From: Candidatus Berkelbacteria bacterium CG_4_10_14_0_2_um_filter_35_9_33_12
GTDB lineage: Bacteria > Patescibacteriota > UBA1384 > GWA2-35-9
Direction: 5' to 3'
DNA: 35,137 nucleotides
Assembly (NCBI GenBank): GCA_002793435.1
Contig: PFQF01000028.1
Span: 1 to 35,137 of the forward strand
Of this stretch, positions 1 through 21,787 are shown piece after piece. The first letter of the stretch is position 1. Each line of letters begins with the position of its first letter. Both the position numbers and the translations under genes were made by a program. Below the pieces are notes generated by a model. The model was not told the DNA's origin and made no database searches. It saw nothing but the letters and a program-made list of their open reading frames with translations.

Positions 1-96
1 AAACAATATCAAAATATTAAATTCTAAATTCCAAACTGTTTATTATTTTGTATTTTGATATTAGATATTGTTTAGAGTTTAGATATTAGGATTTAG
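1..96. repeat. Heptamer-unit palindromic repeat, copy truncated by the window edge
   Basis: 1..96 is the exact reverse complement of 4919..5014; centre AAACTGTTT; contains the recF stop codon (93..95). Confidence 0.9.
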
Positions 97-1115
97 AGTT
101 TGATAATTTCTCCTTCAATCTCTTGCTCCTCTATCGAACTCAAAATCACCTGTCCGTTTTTAGTTGTGTCTAAAACCAACTTCTGATTATCTTTGTCTAA
201 TTCTGAAAAAATATCGTCTAAAAGTAAAATGACCAATTTATTCTTAATTTGGCTTTCAAGCAACTCTTTCTCAGCTAACTTTAAAAAAATTATAGCCGTT
301 TTTTGTTGCCCTCGAGAGCCAAAATTAGCCAAATTTTTACCCTTAAAATTGATCAAAAGGTCATCATGGTGTGATCCGATAGTTGTATGATTATATTTAA
401 TGTCTATTTTTCTCTGTTGACTCAAAGTTTCCTGATTAATTAATGTTAATTTGGGGACGATTTTTAGCGATCTAAAATCGCTCTTACCCAATCCAATAAT
501 TCGTTGGTAATTTTCTTGAAGAAGCTTAAAAAATTCAACTCTTTTTTGATTAATTTTTCTATTTAAGATGACTAATTGTTCGTCCCAAATATCTAATAAA
601 TTTTCATTTAAGCGATTGACTGAAATTAAAAAGAGTTGCCGGTTGCGTTGTTTAATGACTCTATTATATTCAACTAAATCTTTTAGATAAATCTTGGAAT
701 ATTGGCAAATTGCCGAGTTAATAAATTTTCTCCGATAACTAGGGCTACCTAATAAAATATTTAGATCATCTTCCCAAAAAAGAACAGTTGGTATTTCTCC
801 AATTAGTTTAGAAACTGGAACCTTATTTTTATTTATCGAAACAGTTTTTTTATCAGAAAAATTAACAAAAATCTCTTTTTTATCACCATCATTATTTTCA
901 AAACTAGATTTTAAATTAAAATATTCGTTCTCATTATTAATCAAATATTTTTCTCTTTTAACCCGAAAACTTTTAAAGATTGATGAATATCGAATTGCTT
1001 CTAATAAATTACTTTTTCCTGACCCGTTTTTACCAATTATTTGAGTCTTTTCTGAAAATTTAAAACTCTTTTTTTTAAAAGACCTGAAATTTTCTAAAGT
1101 AATTTTATTTAACAT
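93..1115 (-). CDS. recF: DNA replication/repair protein RecF
   Basis: N-terminal LENFRSF, Walker A GKNGSGKSN, signature SRGQQK, Walker B LLLDDIFSELD; downstream of dnaN. Confidence 0.93.
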   Translation of the reverse strand: MLNKITLENFRSFKKKSFKFSEKTQIIGKNGSGKSNLLEAIRYSSIFKSFRVKREKYLINNENEYFNLKSSFENNDGDKKEIFVNFSDKKTVSINKNKVPVSKLIGEIPTVLFWEDDLNILLGSPSYRRKFINSAICQYSKIYLKDLVEYNRVIKQRNRQLFLISVNRLNENLLDIWDEQLVILNRKINQKRVEFFKLLQENYQRIIGLGKSDFRSLKIVPKLTLINQETLSQQRKIDIKYNHTTIGSHHDDLLINFKGKNLANFGSRGQQKTAIIFLKLAEKELLESQIKNKLVILLLDDIFSELDKDNQKLVLDTTKNGQVILSSIEEQEIEGEIIKL

Positions 1116-1124
1116 AAATATGAG

Positions 1125-1257
1125 TTAAATCCTAAATCCTAATTTCTAAACTCTAAACAATATCTAATATCAAAATACAAAATATTAAACAGTTTGAAAT
1201 TTAGAATTTAATATTTTGAATTTGTTTAGATATTAGATATTAGGATTTAGGATTTAA
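1125..1257. repeat. Full-length ~133-bp heptamer-unit palindromic repeat
   Basis: TTAAATCCTAAATCCTAA at the left end pairs with TTAGGATTTAGGATTTAA at the right end; centre AAACAGTTT at 1187..1195. Confidence 0.9.
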
Positions 1258-1264
1258 ATTTGTA

Positions 1265-2374
1265 TTATTCTTCCTTCTCTTCCACTTTAAGTGGCATAAC
1301 AATATAGATAAAGTTATTTATTTCACTCGAACCTATCTTAACTGGACTCGACGGACCATTAAGTAAAAGTGTAATTTTTTGACAATTAATTTTATCTAAT
1401 AGTTCTAAAATAAATTTAACATTAAAAGTAATTCTCACATCTTCTCCATTAATTTCAGTATTGACTTTAGAAATATTTTCCCCGAATTGGTCGGAACGAG
1501 CAATAATGGTTAAATTTTTGTCTTTAATTTTAAAAACTACATTCCCTGAATTATCTCGGCTGAACGATTGTGCTAGTTTTAAACTGTCAATTAATTCTTT
1601 TTTTTCAATTGTAATATCGGTCTTAAAACTACTCGGAATAATTTCTTTATACTCGGGAAAATTACCTGAAATTAATTTCGAAATAATTGTCGTTTTAGGA
1701 TCGTTTATTTCAATTTGATTTGATGAAATATTTAACTCAATCTTGGAATCATCTTTAGTAAAAATTTTAACTAATTCTAAGACAGTTGTTGCTGGAATTA
1801 ATATTTCCACTTCATCATCAACCCCAATATCGGTTAAAGTAATTTCTGCTAATCTATAACTATCTGTCCCGACTAAAGTTAATTGATTATGTATTATTTT
1901 CAAATAAACGCCAGTTAATACCGGTCTGGTTTCGTCAATAGCGCAAGCAAAAACAACTTTTTCTAAAGCGGAAAAAAATTCATTTTTATCTAATTTTATT
2001 TTTAAACCATCTTCACTACCTGGGATTGGTGGAAAATCATTGACTGAGAGTGTGTTTAATGAAGCATTGTTTTTTTCAGAAATAAGATTAAATTTAGTCC
2101 CATCTAATTCTAAAGAAATATTATTATCTTTATTTAACGAAACAAATTCATACATTAAACGAGCCGGAACGGTTAATTTGCCACTATTTTTTACATTCGC
2201 TCCAATTTTTGTAACAACCGCCATCTCTAAATTGGTACTAGAAAGAATTAATTTTCCGTTACTAGCTTCGATCAAAACATTATTCAAAATCGGTAAAATT
2301 GTATTTCTACCCGTAACTCGTGAAATTATCGCTAATCCGCTCACTAAATTTTCAGATAAACATATAGCTTTCAT
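1265..2374 (-). CDS. dnaN: DNA polymerase III beta sliding clamp
   Basis: ILPILNNVLI, STNLE, TDSYRLAE, FPEY, C-terminal YIVMPL; 369 aa; next to dnaA. Confidence 0.97.
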   Translation of the reverse strand: MKAICLSENLVSGLAIISRVTGRNTILPILNNVLIEASNGKLILSSTNLEMAVVTKIGANVKNSGKLTVPARLMYEFVSLNKDNNISLELDGTKFNLISEKNNASLNTLSVNDFPPIPGSEDGLKIKLDKNEFFSALEKVVFACAIDETRPVLTGVYLKIIHNQLTLVGTDSYRLAEITLTDIGVDDEVEILIPATTVLELVKIFTKDDSKIELNISSNQIEINDPKTTIISKLISGNFPEYKEIIPSSFKTDITIEKKELIDSLKLAQSFSRDNSGNVVFKIKDKNLTIIARSDQFGENISKVNTEINGEDVRITFNVKFILELLDKINCQKITLLLNGPSSPVKIGSSEINNFIYIVMPLKVEEKEE

Positions 2375-2479
2375 TTTTTAGTTTTGTTTAAAGATTTAGA
2401 AATTAGTTATGGTTTAGTAGTTAGTATCTATACTTACAGTCTAATAACTTATTCTCTTTTCTTTATTATTAACTTCTTT

Positions 2480-2659
2480 TTAAATAATTAGTAGTAATAG
2501 TAAAGGTTGTGAATATGTGGACTGAACCATAATTTTGGGTGTGTATAAATACCATTTATGTGTGATTATATATGTTTGTAAATATGTTGATAACTAATTT
2601 AAAATTTAAAAATTAAAAATTAAAAACATTATTCACAAGTTATTAACAAGTTATACACA
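2480..2659. promoter_or_regulatory. oriC, dnaA-dnaN part: DnaA boxes, DnaA-trios and AT-rich tract
   Basis: TGTGTATAA 2540..2548, TTATTCACA 2629..2637, TTATTAACA 2640..2648, TTATACACA 2651..2659, weaker boxes at 2508, 2516 and 2585; TAGTAGTAATAGTA trios at 2489..2502. Confidence 0.88.
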
Positions 2660-2666
2660 ACTTTAA

Positions 2667-4001
2667 TTATATTATGCTCAGTTTCTGTTCTATTTCTTCA
2701 ATCTGTTTCATTAATTCAATATCTTCATTAACTTTTTTAGCAATTAATTTTTCACCGTGCATAATTGTAGTATGGTCTTTCCCGCCTAATATAGCTCCAA
2801 TCTTTGGATAAGACATTTTGGTTCTTTTTTTTAAAATAAACATACAGATTTGGCGGGGTAAAACTAAATTATGCGTTCTTCTTTTTGATATTAATTCATC
2901 TTTGGTAATTCCGTAATAGAGTGAAACCACCTCAATTAATTTTTCAGGGGTTTCACCTTTATTGTCGGAAATTAAATCTTTTAATGATTGTTTGGTTGAT
3001 TCGAGCGAGATTTCAATTCCTAATAATTTAGCATCCGTCACAACTTTTGTTAAAGCACCTTCTAATTCACGTATATTTTTGGTTATATATCTTGCAATAT
3101 ACTCCAAAACTTCTGTTTCTATTTTCTTTTTTATAACACTGGCTTTGATTTCTAAAACTGCCATTCTGGTTTCAAAATCAGGTTGAGATATATCAACAAT
3201 CATACCCCATGCCAAGCGAGATGAAATTCGTTCCTCCAGATCAGGAATAGCTTTTGGTACTCTGTCAGAAGTCATCACAATTTGGTGATTGGTTTGATGG
3301 AGTGAATTAAAAGTGTGAAAAAATTCTTCTTGAGTGCCTTCTTTCTTCGATAAAAACTGAATATCGTCAATTAAAAAAATATCGGTTTGGCGATATTTTC
3401 GCTTAAATTCATCCATCTTTTTAGCTTTAATAGCGTTTATATATTCATTAGCAAAATGTTCACAGGAAACATAGAGAATTTTCGCTTCCGGCTTATTTTT
3501 TTTAATTGCATTACCAATTGCTTGGAGCAAATGGGTTTTGCCCAAACCAACTCCACCATAGATAAACAGTGGATTATGCTCTAAGCCAGGATTTTCTGCT
3601 ACCGCTTGACTAGTTGCATAAGCGAGACGATTTGATTGACCAATAACAAAAGTTTCAAAAACATAATTGGGATTTAAATTATGTTTTGGCTTGACAGAAG
3701 CATAATTATTATTTTGTGTACCTATTGAAAATAACAATCTTTCATTACTTGGTTTTTTGTTATTAATCACAAATTCAACACTTTTGATATCGTTTAAGTA
3801 TTTACGGAGTGTTTTAACAATTATTGAGTGATATTTTTTGTCTAGCCAAGTTTTAACAAAAGTACTCGGGACCGACACGATTACATGGCAATTTTTGTAG
3901 TTAGTCAGTTTGGTATCTTTGATCCAAGTTTTAAAATTGGCTTTGGATAAAGTAACTTCAAGTTCACCTAAAGTATTTTGCCATATTTCTTCTAAGTTCA
4001 T
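2667..4001 (-). CDS. dnaA: Chromosomal replication initiator DnaA
   Basis: NPLFIYGGVGLGKTHL, IDDIQFL, QEEFFHTFN, NIRELEGAL, GGKDHTTIMH; ATG at 4001 (MNLEEIW) preferred to the track start at 4019. Confidence 0.98.
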   Translation of the reverse strand: MNLEEIWQNTLGELEVTLSKANFKTWIKDTKLTNYKNCHVIVSVPSTFVKTWLDKKYHSIIVKTLRKYLNDIKSVEFVINNKKPSNERLLFSIGTQNNNYASVKPKHNLNPNYVFETFVIGQSNRLAYATSQAVAENPGLEHNPLFIYGGVGLGKTHLLQAIGNAIKKNKPEAKILYVSCEHFANEYINAIKAKKMDEFKRKYRQTDIFLIDDIQFLSKKEGTQEEFFHTFNSLHQTNHQIVMTSDRVPKAIPDLEERISSRLAWGMIVDISQPDFETRMAVLEIKASVIKKKIETEVLEYIARYITKNIRELEGALTKVVTDAKLLGIEISLESTKQSLKDLISDNKGETPEKLIEVVSLYYGITKDELISKRRTHNLVLPRQICMFILKKRTKMSYPKIGAILGGKDHTTIMHGEKLIAKKVNEDIELMKQIEEIEQKLSII

Positions 4002-4038
4002 ATGAAATAATATTAACACACACGAACTACTTTACAAG

Positions 4039-4107
4039 TTATCCACAGATTTGTCAAAGATTGTGGAAATCAACCCGTTGCGGGTCTGTGGATAGTGCTG
4101 TGGAGAA
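4039..4107. promoter_or_regulatory. DnaA-box cluster upstream of dnaA (second oriC part or autoregulation)
   Basis: Perfect TTATCCACA 4039..4047; TGTGGAAAT 4062..4070, TGTGGATAG 4087..4095, TGTGGAGAA 4099..4107. Confidence 0.85.
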
Positions 4108-4183
4108 CTTTCGGTTAATTACCAATTTTAAATAACAAATTTTAATTTAATATCAAATGATTAAATTTCAAATTAATATAATA

Positions 4184-4212
4184 TTGACCAACACAACTTA
4201 ATAAGCTATAGT
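4184..4212 (+). promoter_or_regulatory. Sigma70-type promoter of rpmH
   Basis: TTGACC-17bp-TATAGT, ending 6 nt before the rpmH ATG. Confidence 0.65.
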
Positions 4213-4218
4213 ATGTTT

Positions 4219-4356
4219 ATGCCTAAAAGAACTTACAAACCTAAAAAAAGAGTCACTAAAAGAGAGCACGGTTTTATGAAACGTATGGCGACTAAAGCTG
4301 GTCGCAATGTATTAAAACGCCGTCGAGCTAAGGGAAGAAAGCAGTTAAGTCGCTAA
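4219..4356 (+). CDS. rpmH: 50S ribosomal protein L34 (absent from the ORF track)
   Basis: Hand translation [45 protein letters not shown] (45 aa); canonical position between dnaA and rnpA. Confidence 0.97.
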
Positions 4357-4357
4357 T

Positions 4358-4693
4358 ATGTTAGCTAAAAACAACCGACTTAGAGATAAAAAAAAGATCT
4401 CTTACATTTTCAAAAAAGGCAAACGAACCAATGGCTCGTTCTTTTCACTTGTTTATCTACCGTCGGGTGAAAATAATTTTAAAGCAGTTTTTTTGATTGC
4501 TAAAAAAGTCTCCCAAAAAGCTACTCGGCGCAACCGAATACGGAGGCTATTATCTGAATCGGTGCGCTTAATTCAAAAAGAAAAAAACTTGCCCAAGATT
4601 AATTTAGTTGTTCGGGTTTTGTTCGACCCAAAAGATGTCAAGTTGGATAATATAAAAAAGGATTTTGAAAAATGTTTCGAAAAATTATCCTGA
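4358..4693 (+). CDS. rnpA: Ribonuclease P protein component
   Basis: MLAKNNRL start and RNR motif KKVSQKATRRNRIRR; follows rpmH. Confidence 0.93.
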   Translation: MLAKNNRLRDKKKISYIFKKGKRTNGSFFSLVYLPSGENNFKAVFLIAKKVSQKATRRNRIRRLLSESVRLIQKEKNLPKINLVVRVLFDPKDVKLDNIKKDFEKCFEKLS

Positions 4694-4905
4694 AATTCAT
4701 CGGTTTTTACCAAAAAACTTTATCCCCCGATAAAGGTTATTTCAAAAAATATTTTCCTGCTGGCTATTGTCCATTTACTCCTCATTGTTCTGACTATTGC
4801 TATCAAGCAGTTGAAAAATATGGTAGTCTAAAAGGACTGGCAAAATGTGCCGGGCGTGTTGTTCGTTGTCACCCGTGGACGAAAGGTGGAAAAGACCCAG
4901 TCTAA
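4672..4905 (+). CDS. yidD: Membrane protein insertion efficiency factor YidD
   Basis: YQKTLSP, CPFTPHCSDY, RCHPWTKGGKDPV. Confidence 0.93.
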   Translation: MFRKIILKFIGFYQKTLSPDKGYFKKYFPAGYCPFTPHCSDYCYQAVEKYGSLKGLAKCAGRVVRCHPWTKGGKDPV

Positions 4906-5044
4906 TAAATTCTAAATCCTAAATCCTAATATCTAAACTCTAAACAATATCTAATATCAAAATACAAAATAATAAACAGTTTGGAATTTAGAATTTAATA
5001 TTTTGATATTGTTTAGAAATTAGGATTTAGGATTTATGATTTTA
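4906..5044. repeat. Full-length heptamer-unit palindromic repeat
   Basis: Fills the yidD-yidC gap; very similar to 1125..1257; centre AAACAGTTT 4974..4982. Confidence 0.9.
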
Positions 5045-5049
5045 AAAAA

Positions 5050-5862
5050 ATGAAATATTTTCTAAAAATTGTATTATACAATCCCCTCTATAACCTTTTA
5101 ATTGGTTTAACCTTGATAATACCCGGTCATTCGGTCGGCTGGGCAATTATTATTATTACCATATTAATTCGTTTATTTTTATTAATCCCCTCTTCGAAAT
5201 CAATCCATCAGCAAAAAAAGATTCAAGAAATTCAACCTCAACTTCAAAAACTGAAAGAGGAGTATAAAGACGATCAAAAAAAATTGACTCAAAAAACTCT
5301 AGCTCTCTATAAAAAATATAAAATCAATCCTATTGGTTCATGCTTACCGCTTTTAATTCAAGTGCCGATTTTAATTATTCTTTATCAAGTTTTTATTCGT
5401 GGATTATCAACTGCCAGTTTTAATAGTCTCTATCCATTTATTTCCCAGCCCGAGAGTCTGAACACTATTTTTTTTGGTTTAGATTTAACCAAACCTGATT
5501 TATGGGTTTTGCCGATTTTAGCCGGAGTATCGCAATTTTTCCAATCTTGGCAACTGCAACCCAAAGTAAAAAATCAATCCGTTGCTAACGATCCGAGCAC
5601 TATGATGATGAAGCAGATGATGCATGTTTTCCCGGTGATAACAGTTTTGATCAGCCGATCGTTGCCTTCTGCTCTACCAATCTATTGGGTGGTTTCTACC
5701 CTGTTTTCAATCATTCAACAGCAATCAATTTTATCTAAAAAAACCAAAGAGATTACAAGCAATGTTGTGGTTGAAATGGATGGAAATAAAGAGGTTAAAA
5801 AAGAGAGCGAAACATTCAAATCTAAAAAAGGCACTACAATAACTATCCGAAAAAAATCCTAA
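5050..5862 (+). CDS. yidC: Membrane protein insertase YidC/Oxa1 (short form)
   Basis: GWAIIIITILIR, NPIGSCLPLLIQVP, ALPIYWVVSTLFSIIQQ. Confidence 0.95.
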   Translation: MKYFLKIVLYNPLYNLLIGLTLIIPGHSVGWAIIIITILIRLFLLIPSSKSIHQQKKIQEIQPQLQKLKEEYKDDQKKLTQKTLALYKKYKINPIGSCLPLLIQVPILIILYQVFIRGLSTASFNSLYPFISQPESLNTIFFGLDLTKPDLWVLPILAGVSQFFQSWQLQPKVKNQSVANDPSTMMMKQMMHVFPVITVLISRSLPSALPIYWVVSTLFSIIQQQSILSKKTKEITSNVVVEMDGNKEVKKESETFKSKKGTTITIRKKS

Positions 5863-5901
5863 ACGCTGGACGCTAAATCCTAAACGCTATATAATATAAA
5901 T

Positions 5902-6210
5902 ATGCAAGGAGAGGAAACACAAAACCCGGTTAAGGATCAATTAAAGTCGATACCCACCTCGGAGGTGACCGAAGGGCTCCTACGAGGTGAAAAAAACGGT
6001 ATTTCTGACGGACCTTATACACTCGATGAATTAATGGGTGAAGAATTTCGCCCTAAAGAAATAGAATCTCCTGATTCTAAACCTAAATCCCTAAATTCCT
6101 CCATTCCTAAACCCTTGCCGTCAAAACACCTAGATTCTCTAAGGCAAAACACCGGTATTCCGACAAGACCGCTAACTATCGGATCAAAAAAAATTGATAT
6201 TTCCCCTTAA
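5902..6210 (+). CDS. Hypothetical protein, Pro/Ser-rich
   Basis: 102-aa ORF, TATAAT 6 nt before the ATG, terminator downstream; no recognised motif. Confidence 0.55.
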   Translation: MQGEETQNPVKDQLKSIPTSEVTEGLLRGEKNGISDGPYTLDELMGEEFRPKEIESPDSKPKSLNSSIPKPLPSKHLDSLRQNTGIPTRPLTIGSKKIDISP

Positions 6211-6231
6211 CCTACTTGACCTACCCAACCT
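6208..6231. repeat. 9-bp-unit (ACCTAY-type) repeat tract
   Basis: TAACCTACTTGACCTACCCAACCT; 6208..6223 is the exact reverse complement of 9884..9899. Confidence 0.7.
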
Positions 6232-6242
6232 GCTCTTATTAG

Positions 6243-6952: not shown

Positions 6953-6985
6953 ACCTATAAAACCTATCTAACTTATCAAGCCTAT
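6953..6985. repeat. 9-bp-unit repeat tract
   Basis: ACCTATAAA ACCTATCTA ACTTATCAA GCCTAT. Confidence 0.65.
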
Positions 6986-8488: not shown

Positions 8489-8521
8489 GCCTATATAACC
8501 TATAAAACTTATCTTACCTAT
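8489..8521. repeat. 9-bp-unit repeat tract
   Basis: GCCTATATA ACCTATAAA ACTTATCTT ACCTAT, directly abutting a -35 box. Confidence 0.65.
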
Positions 8522-8699: not shown

Positions 8700-9566
8700 A
8701 TGGGAAAGAACATCCCAATACGTCGGCATGAGGCTGGCGGACAGAGAGAAAAAAAGGATGATCAGCACCCACTAAGAGACGGGCAGGCTGATGTCCTTGT
8801 TACGGTAGTCGGTACGCACGGCAGTGAGCGTGCGTACGCAGAGGTAGCACAGATTATCTCCTCGAATATCGAGGAGCTGGACGAAGGCATGAAGGTTTTC
8901 GTCCAGGATACGGTTGCCGAACGAATGGTTCGCGACCGAAAAGGGCAATGGGGCCCCGGATCACAAATGGTGGTCCGGGTATCCCGGAATACGAGTGAGA
9001 AGTTCTCCCAAAAGTGGCCCCTTTGGGGATTCTTTTGGGACATGTACCACACGGACAATGTCCGAGTGGTACCCCGTGACCCCGACGATGTCGTCGAGGA
9101 GCAAAATGCCTCGTCGATCGAGAGTCTTGAGAAAGAAATACTCGATCTTGTTGAGCGCAAAGAAGCGCTCAATGTTAACGACACCTGTCTCGAGCAGAAG
9201 ACGCTCGAGGCTGTCTGTGCTCTCGAGTTGCTCTTGTCCGAGGAGGATATGGGTAAAATCGATGAGCGAGAATGGGCGGCAAAGATCGCGTTGACTTCGC
9301 TAAAGAAGTCAATCGCGATACTGGAGCGTCCTGGAGAATTCCAGTCGGGTGTCAAGGACCGATGTGGGTCCTTGGTCGAGCGCCTCCGGGCGTCGATCAA
9401 GAAGATGCCACCGCCCACTCGAAAGAATGGCAACGGCTCCTCCCCGAGTGGGGAGGAGGGTCACCTAACGGTGACCATTGCTGACATCGTCGGCAATCTG
9501 GAGCTGAACCCCGCCCAGGACAACCCCGACGATGTCGTCGAGGAGCCGGAAGCCATTCCGGCATAA
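8700..9566 (+). CDS. Hypothetical GC-rich orphan protein with a predicted helical/coiled-coil middle
   Basis: 288 aa, AAGGAG RBS, own promoter and terminator; GC far above the flanks; PDDVVEE occurs twice. Confidence 0.7.
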   Translation: MGKNIPIRRHEAGGQREKKDDQHPLRDGQADVLVTVVGTHGSERAYAEVAQIISSNIEELDEGMKVFVQDTVAERMVRDRKGQWGPGSQMVVRVSRNTSEKFSQKWPLWGFFWDMYHTDNVRVVPRDPDDVVEEQNASSIESLEKEILDLVERKEALNVNDTCLEQKTLEAVCALELLLSEEDMGKIDEREWAAKIALTSLKKSIAILERPGEFQSGVKDRCGSLVERLRASIKKMPPPTRKNGNGSSPSGEEGHLTVTIADIVGNLELNPAQDNPDDVVEEPEAIPA

Positions 9567-9801: not shown

Positions 9802-9835
9802 AAACCTGTCAGCAATGCGCTGAGCGGGTTTTTTC
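9802..9835 (+). terminator. Intrinsic terminator
   Basis: AAACCTG-TCAGC-AATGC-GCTGA-GCGGGTTTTTT. Confidence 0.65.
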
Positions 9836-9855
9836 TTGTCAAAAAACGAGAGAGA

Positions 9856-9900
9856 GTAGGAAAAGTAGGTTTGGTAGGTAACTTAGGTCAAGTAGGTTAT
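9856..9900. repeat. Five 9-bp units upstream of the four-helix-bundle gene
   Basis: GTAGGAAAA GTAGGTTTG GTAGGTAAC TTAGGTCAA GTAGGTTAT. Confidence 0.8.
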
Positions 9901-9909
9901 AATACTAAT

Positions 9910-10466
9910 ATGTCTTTGCGGTATGAAAACTTAATAATTTACAAACAAGCTGTTATTATCTTTTCTTTGATCTAAATGATTATTTTTGTAAAACCTATCT
10001 TAAGGACTATGCTGAAAAGCGAACCGTTGAACAGATGCAACAAGCGTCAAGAAGCGGAAAACAAAACATAGTTGAAGGTATCTCAGAGATTAGTACAAGT
10101 TTACAGATAAATTTAGTGGCTGTTTCAAAAGCATCTTACCTAGAGTTTCTTGAAGATTATAAAGACTATTTGAGCAGAAACAGATTTAAAGTTTGGGACA
10201 AAAATGACCCTAGTTTATCTGTAATTAGGTTTTCTTCTACTACCTACCAGACCTACCTAACCTACAAAATCCTACCCATTTCTATCAAAAAACTTCTTAC
10301 TCAACCAGAGTCTTTTTGTAACTTAATGATAACTTTATTGAATCAAGAAACTTATATTATGTTGGATAAGTTTGTCAAAACACTTGAGAGCCAGTTTATT
10401 AAAACTGGCGGTTATGGAGAAAACCTGACCAAAAAAAGACTTGATTTTCGGAGAAAAAAGCAGTAG
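9910..10466 (+). pseudogene. Four-helix-bundle protein (TIGR02436/TIGR04258-like, 23S-IVP/Avd fold), frameshifted
   Basis: MSLRYENLIIYKQAVIIF from 9910; TCTTT duplication at 9959..9968; continues in another frame FDLNDYFCKTY..RTVEQMQQASRSGKQNIVEG..ASYLEFLEDY..FIKTGGYGENL. Confidence 0.8.
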
Positions 10467-10478
10467 GTTGGGTAGGAT

Positions 10479-11669
10479 ATGTTAATCAAAACCATTCTAG
10501 CGATCGAGACTTCGTGCGACGAAACTTCGGCATCAGTACTTCAGGTTAACCCCAGAGGTGAACCGAGAGCTAATTTAAAGGTTAAGGTGCTTTCATCTGT
10601 GGTTTACTCGCAGGTATTGACACATCGAAAAACTCAAGGGGTAGTGCCTGAAGTAGCGGCTCGGGAGCATTCGGTTAAGATTATACCAGTAATAAAAAAG
10701 GCACTTTTGGATGCTCAAATAGTTCTAAAACAATCAAGCTTGAGCCGAAAAGAGTTTATTTCAAAGCATATTGATTACATAGCGGTAACCACTAATCCCG
10801 GTCTTTTTGGCTCATTAATGGTTGGGGTTGAAACAGCTAAAACTCTTTCTTACTTGTACAATAAACCAATTATACCTGTAAACCACATTCATGGGCATTT
10901 AGCATCAGTTTTAACCGAGAAGTTAACCAGTCAAACTGGTTTAGATAAAAAAGCGCAAAAAGTACTATTTCCGATGATTACTCTGACGGTCTCTGGTGGG
11001 CATACCAATCTGGTTTTATCTAAAAAATTAGGCGATTATCAGATTGTTGGGAAAACGCTGGACGACGCCGCCGGTGAAGCGTTTGACAAAATTGCTAAAA
11101 TGCTCGATCTTGATTACCCTGGTGGGGTGGAAGTTGCCAGAATAGCTGACCAGTACCAACAAGAAGTAGTAAGTAGTAAGTATTATGTATTAAGCGAAGA
11201 CAAAAGAATACCCCATAATATTAGCCCCATAATACATAATACAGACTTTAACTTTCCTCGTCCTGTGCTCCACTCTCACGATTTCAATTTCTCTTTCTCT
11301 GGCTTGAAGACAGCTGTCTATTACCAACTCCGAAAAATGGATAAGCGTTGCATAAAAATTATGCAAGGATATATCTGCTACGAGGCACAAAAAGCGATTG
11401 TGGAGGTGTTGGTTGCCAAGACCCTGAAAGCGGCTGAAAAGTATCAAGTTAAAACGGTTGGTTTGGCTGGCGGAGTTGCCAGCAATTTTTTCTTGAGGAA
11501 GAAACTAAAATTTAAAATTAAAAATTTAAAATTAAAAATTGCCCTTTCAGTAGCTCCGAAAGAATTATGCACGGATAACGCTACAATGATCGCTCTGTCA
11601 GCGGGAATAGATTTGTATTTAGGGAGAAACATTAAATCGTGGGAGAGGGTGGTAGCGAGTAGTAACTAA
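10479..11669 (+). CDS. tsaD: tRNA t6A37 threonylcarbamoyltransferase TsaD, with repeat-derived insertions
   Basis: ILAIETSCDET, GVVPEVAAREH, NHIHGH, VSGGHT, DDAAGEAFDK, FSFSGLKTA, CTDNATMI. Confidence 0.96.
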   Translation: MLIKTILAIETSCDETSASVLQVNPRGEPRANLKVKVLSSVVYSQVLTHRKTQGVVPEVAAREHSVKIIPVIKKALLDAQIVLKQSSLSRKEFISKHIDYIAVTTNPGLFGSLMVGVETAKTLSYLYNKPIIPVNHIHGHLASVLTEKLTSQTGLDKKAQKVLFPMITLTVSGGHTNLVLSKKLGDYQIVGKTLDDAAGEAFDKIAKMLDLDYPGGVEVARIADQYQQEVVSSKYYVLSEDKRIPHNISPIIHNTDFNFPRPVLHSHDFNFSFSGLKTAVYYQLRKMDKRCIKIMQGYICYEAQKAIVEVLVAKTLKAAEKYQVKTVGLAGGVASNFFLRKKLKFKIKNLKLKIALSVAPKELCTDNATMIALSAGIDLYLGRNIKSWERVVASSN

Positions 11670-11765
11670 GCAAGAATAATTCATTTCAAAACCTTGCCTA
11701 TCTAACCTATATGACCTATAATCAAGACGGGTATAAAGGAATGTAGGAATCTAGAGATAAAGAAA

Positions 11766-20637: not shown

Positions 20638-20991
20638 GTGGAAAAGATTTACACATTAGTGAATCAAGCGTTAGTGGCTTATTCGCCACCGGGATCAGGT
20701 TTTGATAGTCCTGTGCCATCAGGTTCAAGTATTGACACGGGTAGAAAGTTTAAAGATCTACCAACCACAATTGCGACTCTGTTTAACTTTATTATTGGAG
20801 TGGCGGCGGTAGTTTTTGTTATTCTGTTAATGGTCGGTGGTATTACCTATTTAACTGGTGCTGGAAACGAGGAGCAAGTTAATAAATCCAAGAAGTTGAT
20901 GATCGATTCAATAATCGGCTTAGTAGTCGTTTTGGCGGCGTGGGCAATCGGTACCTATGTCCTCAACGCCTTTGGTTATTCAGTTAGTTAA
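20638..20991 (+). CDS. TrbC/VirB2-like (T4SS_pilin-type) pilin 1
   Basis: AAGGAGG RBS with GTG; two TM helices joined by GGITYLTGAGNEEQVNKSKKLMIDSIIG. Confidence 0.8.
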   Translation: MEKIYTLVNQALVAYSPPGSGFDSPVPSGSSIDTGRKFKDLPTTIATLFNFIIGVAAVVFVILLMVGGITYLTGAGNEEQVNKSKKLMIDSIIGLVVVLAAWAIGTYVLNAFGYSVS

Positions 20992-21023
20992 AAATAATTG
21001 ATAAAAATTAAATAAGCTTGTTT

Positions 21024-21434
21024 ATGCTACTCAAGTTGTTGAACATGTTTTTGGTAGATCACGCTTTGGCGATTAGTGTGTTGCCGACCAAACCACCAGA
21101 AGGAGTCCCCGATTTGTTTGGAGGGGGTGAAAAAGAAGGGGGGGTGAGTACGGCTGGCGATAATCTTGCCGATATTATTAGTTTTATTTTTGATTTTGTT
21201 ATAGCAATTTCAGGAGGAATTTTCGTAATAATGTTTCTTATCGGTGGGGTAACTTATTTAACCGGCGCTGGTAACGACGAACAAACTAGTAAAGGCAAAA
21301 AGATGTTAATTGATGCGGTTGTAGGTATTTTTATCGTATTAGTTGCCTGGGGAATCGGGACTTATGTTATTAATGTATTTAAAACCACAAATACAAATAC
21401 AAAACCATCAGGACCATTATGGACATGGACATAA
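21024..21434 (+). CDS. TrbC/VirB2-like pilin 2
   Basis: HALA processing-like motif; GGVTYLTGAGNDEQTSKGKKMLIDAVVG; start codon uncertain (21018/21024/21045). Confidence 0.8.
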   Translation: MLLKLLNMFLVDHALAISVLPTKPPEGVPDLFGGGEKEGGVSTAGDNLADIISFIFDFVIAISGGIFVIMFLIGGVTYLTGAGNDEQTSKGKKMLIDAVVGIFIVLVAWGIGTYVINVFKTTNTNTKPSGPLWTWT

Positions 21435-21787
21435 TTAATTTATTCTTAATTGATAAAGCGTTGGCTTTTAACGATTACAATGTTTTTCCCAACCGACCGG
21501 AAAATGTGCCGAGTAAATTTTCGGGATCTGGCGGGGTAAACAATGCCAGCGGTAATCTAGCTAAGATCATTGAATTTATTTTCAATTTTGTAATTGCTAT
21601 TGCTGGAGCAATATTTGTCATTATGCTACTAATCGGTGGAATTACTTATTTGGTTGGCGCTGGTAATGAAGAACAGATTGGCAAGGGAAAGAAAATGATG
21701 ATTGATGCCATAATCGGAATTTTTATTGTGCTTGCTTCTTGGGCAATCGGTACCTATATTCTTAACGCTTTTGGATATAGATCTTAA
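21419..21787 (+). CDS. TrbC/VirB2-like pilin 3
   Basis: KALA motif; GGITYLVGAGNEEQIGKGKKMMIDAIIG. Confidence 0.8.
   Translation: MDMDIINLFLIDKALAFNDYNVFPNRPENVPSKFSGSGGVNNASGNLAKIIEFIFNFVIAIAGAIFVIMLLIGGITYLVGAGNEEQIGKGKKMMIDAIIGIFIVLASWAIGTYILNAFGYRS

Follow-up and report, generated by a model that had tools for sequence, protein, structure and literature searches.

We analysed a 35,137-nucleotide stretch of DNA (the window; contig PFQF01000028.1, assembly GCA_002793435.1) from Candidatus Berkelbacteria bacterium CG_4_10_14_0_2_um_filter_35_9_33_12, which is contig C33 of a 590-kb, 46-contig genome with 33% G+C. At positions 9910-10466 of the plus strand, the window carries a gene of the four-helix-bundle suffix family TIGR04258, broken by a 5-bp duplication and accompanied by tandem arrays of 9-base units (nonamers). 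Across the family, the sequence of such arrays shifts between lineages, but within one gene the units of flanks and linker remain alike. Because the arrays concentrate at the gene ends and co-vary with the linker, we conclude that the family travels with its own nonamer arrays. The arrays appear to be the cis-acting nucleic-acid element of this module, and with about even confidence we propose that they are most likely recognition sites, at the gene's own promoter and start codon, of an oligomer resembling Avd, the accessory protein of diversity-generating retroelements (DGRs).

Nonamer arrays at the gene and across its family

Period-9 arrays lie near both ends of the window gene, and matching units are found in its linker (9856-9900, 10463-10476 and 10243-10275, all given on the plus strand). 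The upstream array consists of five 9-mers, four with a GTAGG and one with a TTAGG core, separated by variable 4-base spacers; Tandem Repeats Finder (TRF) reports period 9 and 4.8 copies, and five units are also present in G001, a genome of the same genus that encodes an intact ortholog (P0002). The four CCTAC 9-mers of the internal array, reverse-complementary to the GTAGG arrays on both sides, are translated as TYQTYLTYKILP and fall in the loop that connects helix 3 to the suffix helix. The downstream array, two GTAGG 9-mers, lies over the stop codon and ends 2 bases short of the start of tsaD (10479), a layout that is identical in G001. The pattern GTAGG-N4-GTAGG occurs six times in the window, on the plus strand at 9856, 9865 and 10463 and on the minus strand at 10243, 10252 and 6211, compared to 0.01 expected occurrences, and none of 100 shuffles reaches six. 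The GTAGG pentamer alone is not enriched (25 versus 24.1 expected), the enrichment being restricted to the 9-base phasing. The initial annotation, made from the letters of the window, had proposed that the internal tract is complementary to the 9-mers on both sides and that the locus can fold back on itself. The strands of these sites agree with this proposal, as does the predicted RNA fold of 9850-10485, in which the upstream GUAGG array pairs with the internal CCUAC array in the minimum-energy structure (-162.6 kcal/mol compared to -125.8 +/- 5.9 for 20 shuffles, z -6.2).

Upstream of the first array, a terminator-like hairpin with a T-run (9809..9848; stem 9809-9823, then GCGGGTTTTT) ends a GC-rich gene. 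As it precedes the array, the array is probably not part of the transcript of that gene. A -10-like box, TATAAT (9898..9903), is joined to the last array unit, 6 bases before the A of the ATG when read from the sequence, a spacing from which a leaderless-transcript geometry may be inferred. A promoter scan did not report it as a full promoter because its -35 region is poor. With the terminator-like site in front and the -10 box within the array, the upstream array may not be transcribed together with the gene. The start codon itself belongs to a C-N-W-A-T-ATG word, CTAATATG (9905..9912), which is a palindrome-type unit of the family.

Four satellite arrays, again given on the plus strand, surround the gene. 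The first, CCTAC/CCTAC/CCTGC (6211..6235), directly follows the stop codon of the open reading frame (ORF) 5902-6210. An ACCTAT-type array of 3.7 copies (6953..6985) ends 17 bases before a promoter-like site, TTGACA-17-TAAACT, a CCTAT-type array of 3.6 copies (8490..8521) abuts another, TTGACA-17-TATGCT, and a further CCTAT-type array (11697..11720) fills the spacer of a third, TTGCCT-17-TATAAT, before valS; this last array is kept in G001 with five units. When the core was relaxed to CCTAY-N4-CCTAY or RTAGG-N4-RTAGG, all 10 matches in the 590-kb genome fell within 6211-11719 of contig C33. The seven arrays are thus clustered in 5.5 kb, with no others in the genome, and every intergenic gap between ORF 5902 and valS contains one. 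In G001, 9 of the 12 relaxed-core matches lie within 2 kb of the gene, while five related genomes without a P0002 match contain 1-9 scattered matches, compared to 4-8 for a reversed-pattern control.

In the region 5860-6235, phased ACGCT words, ending in TATAAT 6 bases before the ATG, precede ORF 5902-6210, which encodes 102 amino acids without a family match and has phased CCTAA words inside and the CCTAC array after it; it may be another repeat-shaped small gene, or no gene. The 288-codon ORF at 8700-9566 has ca. 51% G+C and no Pfam or NCBIfam family; it is also found directly upstream of the four-helix-bundle gene in G001.

Relatives of the broken gene were collected by a protein search over 5.8 billion proteins, which gave 160 relatives with E <=0.001 among 206 candidates, the closest being labelled Berkelbacteria, and by a family survey with one genome per species, which gave at least 578 confirmed relatives among at least 601 matched stretches. 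The family statistics refer to the best 80 of these at least 578 relatives (L004-L083) plus the window. The 80 loci come from groups of the candidate phyla radiation (CPR), Bacteroidota, Verrucomicrobiota, Lentisphaerota, Desulfuromonadales, Acidobacteriota, Planctomycetes-like and Mariprofundaceae genomes. TRF detected period-9 arrays in 58 of 81 loci: in the upstream region in 36 of 79, within the gene in 31 of 81 and in the downstream region in 32 of 76. Up to 150 bp from the gene ends their density reaches 3.19 per kb, compared to 0.75 in the gene itself and 0.20-0.33 at greater distances, which corresponds to a 10-15-fold enrichment at the gene ends across many phyla. A lag-9 self-identity of at least 20/27 was found in the 72 bases before the start of 19/76 genes, compared to 1/278 other ORFs of the same loci, and after the stop of 11/76 genes, compared to 0/278 other ORFs; lags of 6, 7, 8, 10, 11 and 12 gave just 0-2 of the 76 genes. 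An unusually long array, 18.8 copies of CCTATAAGA, directly follows the stop codon in one locus (L031, 719-887).

Most units, when aligned in their best register, consist of an 8-bp palindrome and one additional base, the forms being CTAATTAG-N, CTTATAAG-N, CGTATACG-N, CAAATTTG-N and CCTATAGG-N. The palindromy in this register is 0.60, compared to 0.42 in column-permuted arrays, and values of at least 0.75 are reached by 45 of 123 arrays versus 15 of 123 permuted ones. The copies within the coding sequence shun the stop-containing form, so that an upstream AATTAG becomes AATTTG, AATTGG or AATATG inside the gene. The word CNWAT directly precedes the ATG, the start thus being the end of a unit, in 17/79 family starts including that of the window, compared to 2/374 starts of other ORFs and 93/7763 of all ATGs. 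Flank and linker units of the same locus agree in 7.09 of 9 positions on average, versus 5.91 +/- 0.21 for permuted loci (22 loci; 0 of 2000 permutations). Arrays more than 150 bp away from the gene match their own locus at 8/9 or better in 11 of 75 cases, while other loci are matched in 59 of 4275. Together, the lag-9 signal, the TRF arrays and the flank-linker match bear out the expectation, raised with the initial annotation, that relatives and paralogues are flanked by 7-9-bp periodic repeats matching their internal tract.

The broken gene and its protein

The frame that begins with the ATG at 9910 encodes most of helix 1 and ends after 21 codons at a TAA (9973-9975). The frame encoding helices 2-4 and the tail is open from 9939 to the TAG at 10464-10466, and its first start codon, the ATG at 10035, leaves a remainder of 143 codons. 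Instead of the uninterrupted frame of ca. 175-195 codons expected of TIGR04258 genes, the gene is therefore split into parts of 21 and 143 codons. Within the overlap of both frames (9939-9975) lies the tandem duplication TCTTT TCTTT, TCTTTTCTTT (9959-9968), which shifts the reading frame. The best protein relative, P0002 (182 amino acids, 83% identical, same genus and same neighbours), and a second relative, P0005, read across the break as ...YKQAV(V/I)IFDLNDYFCK..., and the G001 DNA at this point, ...GTTGTTATCTTTGACCTTAATGAC..., contains a single TCTTT. Because these sequences run through with one copy, the window has exactly one TCTTT too many. The proposals of the initial annotation that the gene was switched off by the 5-bp duplication, and that removing one TCTTT restores a complete family member, are thus supported by the frames and by the one-copy ortholog. 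In G001, the intact copy is preceded by a GC-rich gene, followed in turn by a terminator-like hairpin, five units of the GTAGG type and TATAAT; its stop codon lies within a two-unit GTAGG array, and tsaD comes next.

To evaluate the lesion, Logan contigs from 4 further groundwater or aquifer runs (X4, X5, X6 and X9), none of them marked as a possible source of this DNA, were compared to the window; among the 24 runs listed, 23 contain the DNA, and no RNA run is among these. Contigs of all 4 runs span 9948-9978 without an insertion or deletion and have both copies of TCTTT, so that the duplication is real and apparently fixed and an assembly error is unlikely, with the qualification that contig data hide minority alleles. 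One of the runs, X5, has an in-frame 3-base deletion at 10355 within the broken gene, which is also found in the protein cluster P0003. The contigs are hence not copies of one assembly. The clusters P0003 (4 members) and P0004, which come from other assemblies, begin at an internal methionine. The ratio of nonsynonymous to synonymous substitution rates (dN/dS) relative to the G001 ortholog is 0.116 over 182 codons (dS 0.75), similar to the 0.122 of the adjacent tsaD, and no second stop or frameshift was found in the broken gene in comparison with the G001 ortholog. Together, these values indicate that selection acted until recently, and the gene has the appearance of a recent pseudogene that, within the resolution of contigs, is fixed. 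In the model of the ortholog (predicted local distance difference test score, pLDDT, 87.7), the break lies within helix 1 and Met42 within helix 2; without helix 1 and the first part of helix 2, the 143-codon remainder is thus predicted to be unable to form the bundle.

Two ways of obtaining a longer product were considered. For programmed frameshifting, a reading of the overlap by eye showed no slippery heptamer of the type X XXY YYZ in 9939-9975. An alternative upstream start is not available, as the 3' frame contains no ATG, GTG or TTG between 9939 and 10035.

Profile searches placed the gene in the family to which the initial annotation had assigned it. The suffix domain (10305..10451, plus strand) matches the 49-position model TIGR04258 with 49.6 bits in the 3' frame and 51.6 bits in a six-frame search of the genome, above the cut-off of 40, and P0002 reaches 60.2 bits. 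Compared to the NCBIfam entry, whose accessible part gives a name without a function and does not mention repeat arrays, the window copy differs from the members in being frameshifted, while its N-terminal part has the helix-2 motif and matches TIGR02436-like profile positions 20-68. With TIGR02436 itself (cut-off 24), the 3' frame of the window scores 18.8 bits, P0002 22.3, and the relatives P0016 and P0007 21.9 and 28.7, respectively, the match being limited to profile positions 13-69 of 109 in the window frame and the relatives. For PF05635 (threshold 33.8) the scores are 19.5 bits for the window and 26.0 for P0002, with an overall range of 19.5-29 below the gathering threshold. The window gene and P0002 therefore fall below the curated thresholds of both models.

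The model of the ortholog P0002 is a four-helix bundle. In Foldseek comparisons, it matches 2gsc with a template modelling (TM) score, normalised to the target, of 0.67-0.70 and 2rld with 0.54-0.75 (probabilities 0.87-1.0, E 0.004-0.3), as well as the Avd chain 8ub7_E of a DGR complex with 0.76 (probability 0.98, E 0.75); all Foldseek E-values are above 0.001. The sole match of the family profile among the sequences of solved structures was 2gsc (E 0.079). The modelled structure thus agrees with the earlier suggestion of a fold shared with Avd (TM scores of 0.68-0.76 for 2gsc, 2rld and 8ub7_E), and an Avd-like fold of the family is supported at the superfamily level. In the family alignment, the most conserved protein surface is invariant and is formed by R36, Q40, R46, S47, K49, Q50 and N51. 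The alignment also shows tripeptide repeats, (S/T)-N-x, (S/T)-Y-x and P-N-x, in homologs at the same loop that reads TYQTYLTYK in the window, and additionally in loop 1 and at the N- and C-termini.

Genomic setting and the second paralogue

The neighbours of the family differ by lineage and include an aminoacyl-tRNA synthetase, peptidase M23, ThiC, ribosomal protein S7 and others. Of the 143 nearest ORFs of the 80 relatives, 120 were scanned (the 23 neighbours of L071-L083 were left out), and among these no conserved neighbour and no recombinase or transposase accompanying the gene was found. A reverse transcriptase was detected neither in the 34 window ORFs nor among these 120 neighbours, of which two have an RNase H-like RVT_3 domain alone. 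In 65 of 75 loci, the upstream neighbour has the same direction as the gene. In several loci (L070, L057, L053, L022, L042, L065) the gene is wedged in unrelated operons, for example between cas7 and cas1 or between two genes for subunits of the electron transfer flavoprotein, while other sites of this set lie after a RAMP gene, after Eco57I-type methylase genes or after a type I specificity subunit gene. Among the 25 loci scanned for tRNAs, several from CPR genomes adjoin a tRNA-Ala(CGC)/tRNA-Ala(GGC) pair. The gene separates the two tRNAs in L007, L010 and L011, precedes both in L017, follows both in L013 and, in L006, lies next to a pair on the opposite strand; in L011 and L017 more nonamer arrays adjoin the tRNAs. 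No family member was found in 50,697 phage records, and the one match in 72,556 plasmid records is on a 568-kb Prevotella replicon. The window contains no rRNA according to Rfam, whose sole match is one tRNA, and the four-helix-bundle gene has a protein-coding gene on one side and tsaD on the other.

The only other family member in this genome is located at C6:6853-7173 and passes both thresholds (TIGR02436 64.1 bits, PF05635 41.1 bits). It is flanked by inverted arrays of 7-base units. Such arrays with at least three units are numerous in the genome, with 23 of CTAA type and 24 of TTAG type compared to 0-2 in shuffles, and 44 of these 47 lie outside ORFs of at least 80 amino acids. They form 15 inverted pairs, 63-99 bases apart, which represent 14 distinct copies of a dispersed element. 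It is built of 7-base units (AAATCCT or AATTTCT type), a spacer of ca. 70 bases and an inverse run (TTTAGGA type), and its predicted fold is a long hairpin on both strands (z -8.4 to -11). Two copies are found in the window (1132-1250 and 4912-5030), where the element has no Rfam match, and 12 at further places, e.g. C6:184-303 and C36:16016-16149. In the gene-bearing pair (C6:6780-7238), the arms are 410 bases apart. Its right arm, as well as its left arm with the first codons of the paralogue, resembles those of the ORF-less copy C6:184-303, from which we conclude that the second paralogue sits in the loop of a hairpin. A second long pair, in contig C14 (383 bases), was discarded, since it joins a chance array in a coding region to the right arm of a normal element.

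Elsewhere in the window, the genes recF, dnaN and dnaA (minus strand), rnpA and yidC (93-5862) mark the replication origin region, and the cumulative GC skew has its minimum at ca. 6-7 kb. Three tandem small T4SS_pilin genes (PF18895), followed by a T2SSE ATPase gene on the opposite strand, occupy 20638-21787.

Function of the arrays and fate of the gene

That the protein binds the repeats is plausible from their co-occurrence, their co-variation and the precedent of Avd. The arrays would then be recognised by the encoded Avd-like oligomer, with about one unit for each protomer, would control the expression of the gene itself at its promoter and start codon, and might control neighbouring promoters as well. 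In this genome, the protein partner would just have been lost, with its arrays still in place. The array words (GTAGGTNNN)n, (ACCTACNNN)n or their duplex are the predicted ligands of the intact ortholog. A more far-reaching version, which we consider doubtful and put forward tentatively, describes a self-contained recognition module of a so far undescribed kind, in which each protomer of an Avd-like barrel reads one 9-base unit in flank-linker duplexes. Such a module would regulate itself at its start codon and promoter, seed further arrays at promoters nearby, and be transferred as a whole from one operon or tRNA cluster to another in different phyla. The 9-base unit may in this case consist of an 8-bp palindrome plus one unpaired or flipped base.

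Several observations weigh against recognition of the arrays by the encoded protein. No period-9 array was detected by TRF in 23 of 81 loci, and as related loci are kin, the counts overstate their independence. The units in the window are half-sites of the CCTATAGG type and no palindromes, the left half (CCTAC or CCTAT) being found in the linker and the satellites and the right half (GTAGG) flanking the gene. The link to promoters relies on consensus matches, which overall are no commoner in the window than in shuffles (13 versus 12.5 expected). The most conserved protein surface described above is invariant although the repeat word varies by lineage, so that the specificity for the repeat would have to sit elsewhere in the protein. 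An excess of G-T over A-C in the mismatches of the palindromes was not found (37 versus 52 in the flanks, 13 versus 10 inside the gene), which disfavours a structure selected only in sense-strand RNA, although this does not identify the ligand.

The arrays could instead be structural elements independent of the encoded protein, either stems that RNase III cuts, like those of the ORF-bearing intervening sequences of rRNA, or the boundaries of a portable cassette, with the protein as cargo. We regard this main alternative as rather unlikely, but it accounts for several observations: the units are self-complementary or the arrays inverted, the RNA of the window folds the upstream onto the linker array, the paralogue at C6:6853-7173 sits within a hairpin of inverted 7-base arrays that has at least 14 ORF-less copies, the gene occurs in unrelated operons and at varying positions beside tRNA-Ala pairs, and its upstream neighbour is mostly co-directional. 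The terminator-like site before the upstream array and the -10 box in it, however, make co-transcription with the gene doubtful, and a G-U bias is not seen. No recombinase or transposase travels with the gene among the neighbours scanned, phage and plasmid records contain next to no matches, and the satellite arrays in the neighbouring gaps are single instead of inverted pairs. The 23S rRNA intervening sequences (PF05635, 23S_rRNA_IVP or 'S23p') likewise combine a small four-helix-bundle ORF of the same superfamily with complementary flanks inside other transcription units; unlike these, the window gene lies outside rRNA and scores below the PF05635 threshold, and instead of one long inverted repeat it has tandem 9-mers, with the repeat also in the coding linker. 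Such ORFs are reported from rRNA insertions of CPR bacteria in a paper that calls the domain functionally uncharacterised (PMC11270868). It is quite improbable that the arrays are a by-product of slippage-prone promoter or AT-rich sequence or of local gene conversion, with no function tied to the family. The genome is indeed rich in other short-period arrays (190 period-7 TRF matches), three satellite arrays coincide with promoter-like sites, and the linker tolerates any repeat. Such an origin would hardly explain an enrichment that in many phyla coincides with the gene ends and is confined to lag 9, the co-variation of flank and linker units, their palindromic form, a start codon embedded in a unit, and the absence of clusters from the 5 related genomes without the gene.

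Two further explanations concern a switch of the gene itself. The mutually inverted arrays at 9856-9896 and 10243-10275 might act as the two arms of a DNA inversion switch, with the 5' two-thirds of the gene as the invertible segment. As each unit has just 5-6 conserved bases, the window encodes no invertase, the 4 runs yielded neither a contig of inverted order nor inversion joints, and the two arrays are direct or palindromic in most relatives, this is extremely unlikely. A reversible phase switch, in which the copy number of TCTTT changes by slipped-strand mispairing, is also very unlikely. It would be in line with a perfect tandem duplication that slippage could remove, with the otherwise intact gene (dN/dS 0.12), and with the strain variant in X5, whose 3-base deletion keeps the frame. 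However, a 5-base unit in just two copies is poorly suited to slippage, unlike the many-copy tract of a short unit that is the hallmark of a contingency locus. Both copies are present in the contigs of all 4 runs, within the limit given above for minority alleles, and the clusters that begin at an internal methionine come from other assemblies. The intact forms P0002 and P0005 are 81-83% identical and thus represent other species-level lineages. The initial annotation had left the choice between a decaying and a phase-variable copy; a recent, fixed pseudogene is favoured by the contigs, the internal-methionine clusters and the presence of just two 5-base units.

In the reading of the arrays as recognition sites, the locus resembles ring-shaped or oligomeric readers of tandem short repeats, such as TRAP on (G/U)AG repeats and ParR on the parC iterons upstream of its own operon. 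Like these, it has three to five tandem units beside or over its own promoter and start codon, and this unit number is comparable to the number of protomers in an Avd-type pentamer; unlike in TRAP and ParR, whose folds are unrelated, the repeat of the window runs on inside the coding sequence. One gene flanked by short palindromic repeats, which are thought to be its targets, is also the arrangement of repetitive extragenic palindromes (REP) with their associated tyrosine transposases (RAYT) and of pairs of insertion sequences (IS) and miniature inverted-repeat transposable elements (MITE). As in REP/RAYT systems, ORF-less copies of a repeat occur elsewhere, here of the 7-base hairpin family around the second paralogue, whereas the window family has no nuclease or transposase fold and its nonamer arrays are confined to a few kb around the gene instead of being dispersed. 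In a preprint on a DGR ribonucleoprotein, Avd is described as a pentameric, positively charged barrel whose five protomers all contact one RNA stem-loop via flipped-out bases, with bases 369-379 of the avd coding sequence pairing with the flanking spacer RNA (bioRxiv 10.1101/2023.10.23.563531). Among documented systems, this comes closest to a gene whose coding sequence contains the complement of the flank. In contrast to Avd, no reverse transcriptase is found nearby in the window ORFs and scanned neighbours, and no template or variable repeat is present; the sequence similarity is at the superfamily level only, and the extra suffix helix and tail of the window family are absent from Avd.

A full-text search, which did not reach subscription journals, found no literature that links the TIGR04258/TIGR02436/PF05635 family to repeat arrays; one paper, as far as its accessible parts go, merely lists a four-helix-bundle gene in tables (PMC5524665). 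As far as searched, the module of gene and nonamer arrays has not been described in print. The TIGR02436/PF05635 superfamily is very widespread, and to our knowledge its DGR member Avd alone has a known role. The repeat signature that travels with the gene is hence the first concrete, testable handle on what the proteins of the suffix subfamily act on. The window supplies a natural knock-out beside an intact sister species with the same arrays, and shows the arrays spread into every neighbouring intergenic gap, in part at promoter-like sites, while elsewhere in the genome a second paralogue occupies the loop of a dispersed hairpin element of 7-base units, many copies of which lack an ORF.

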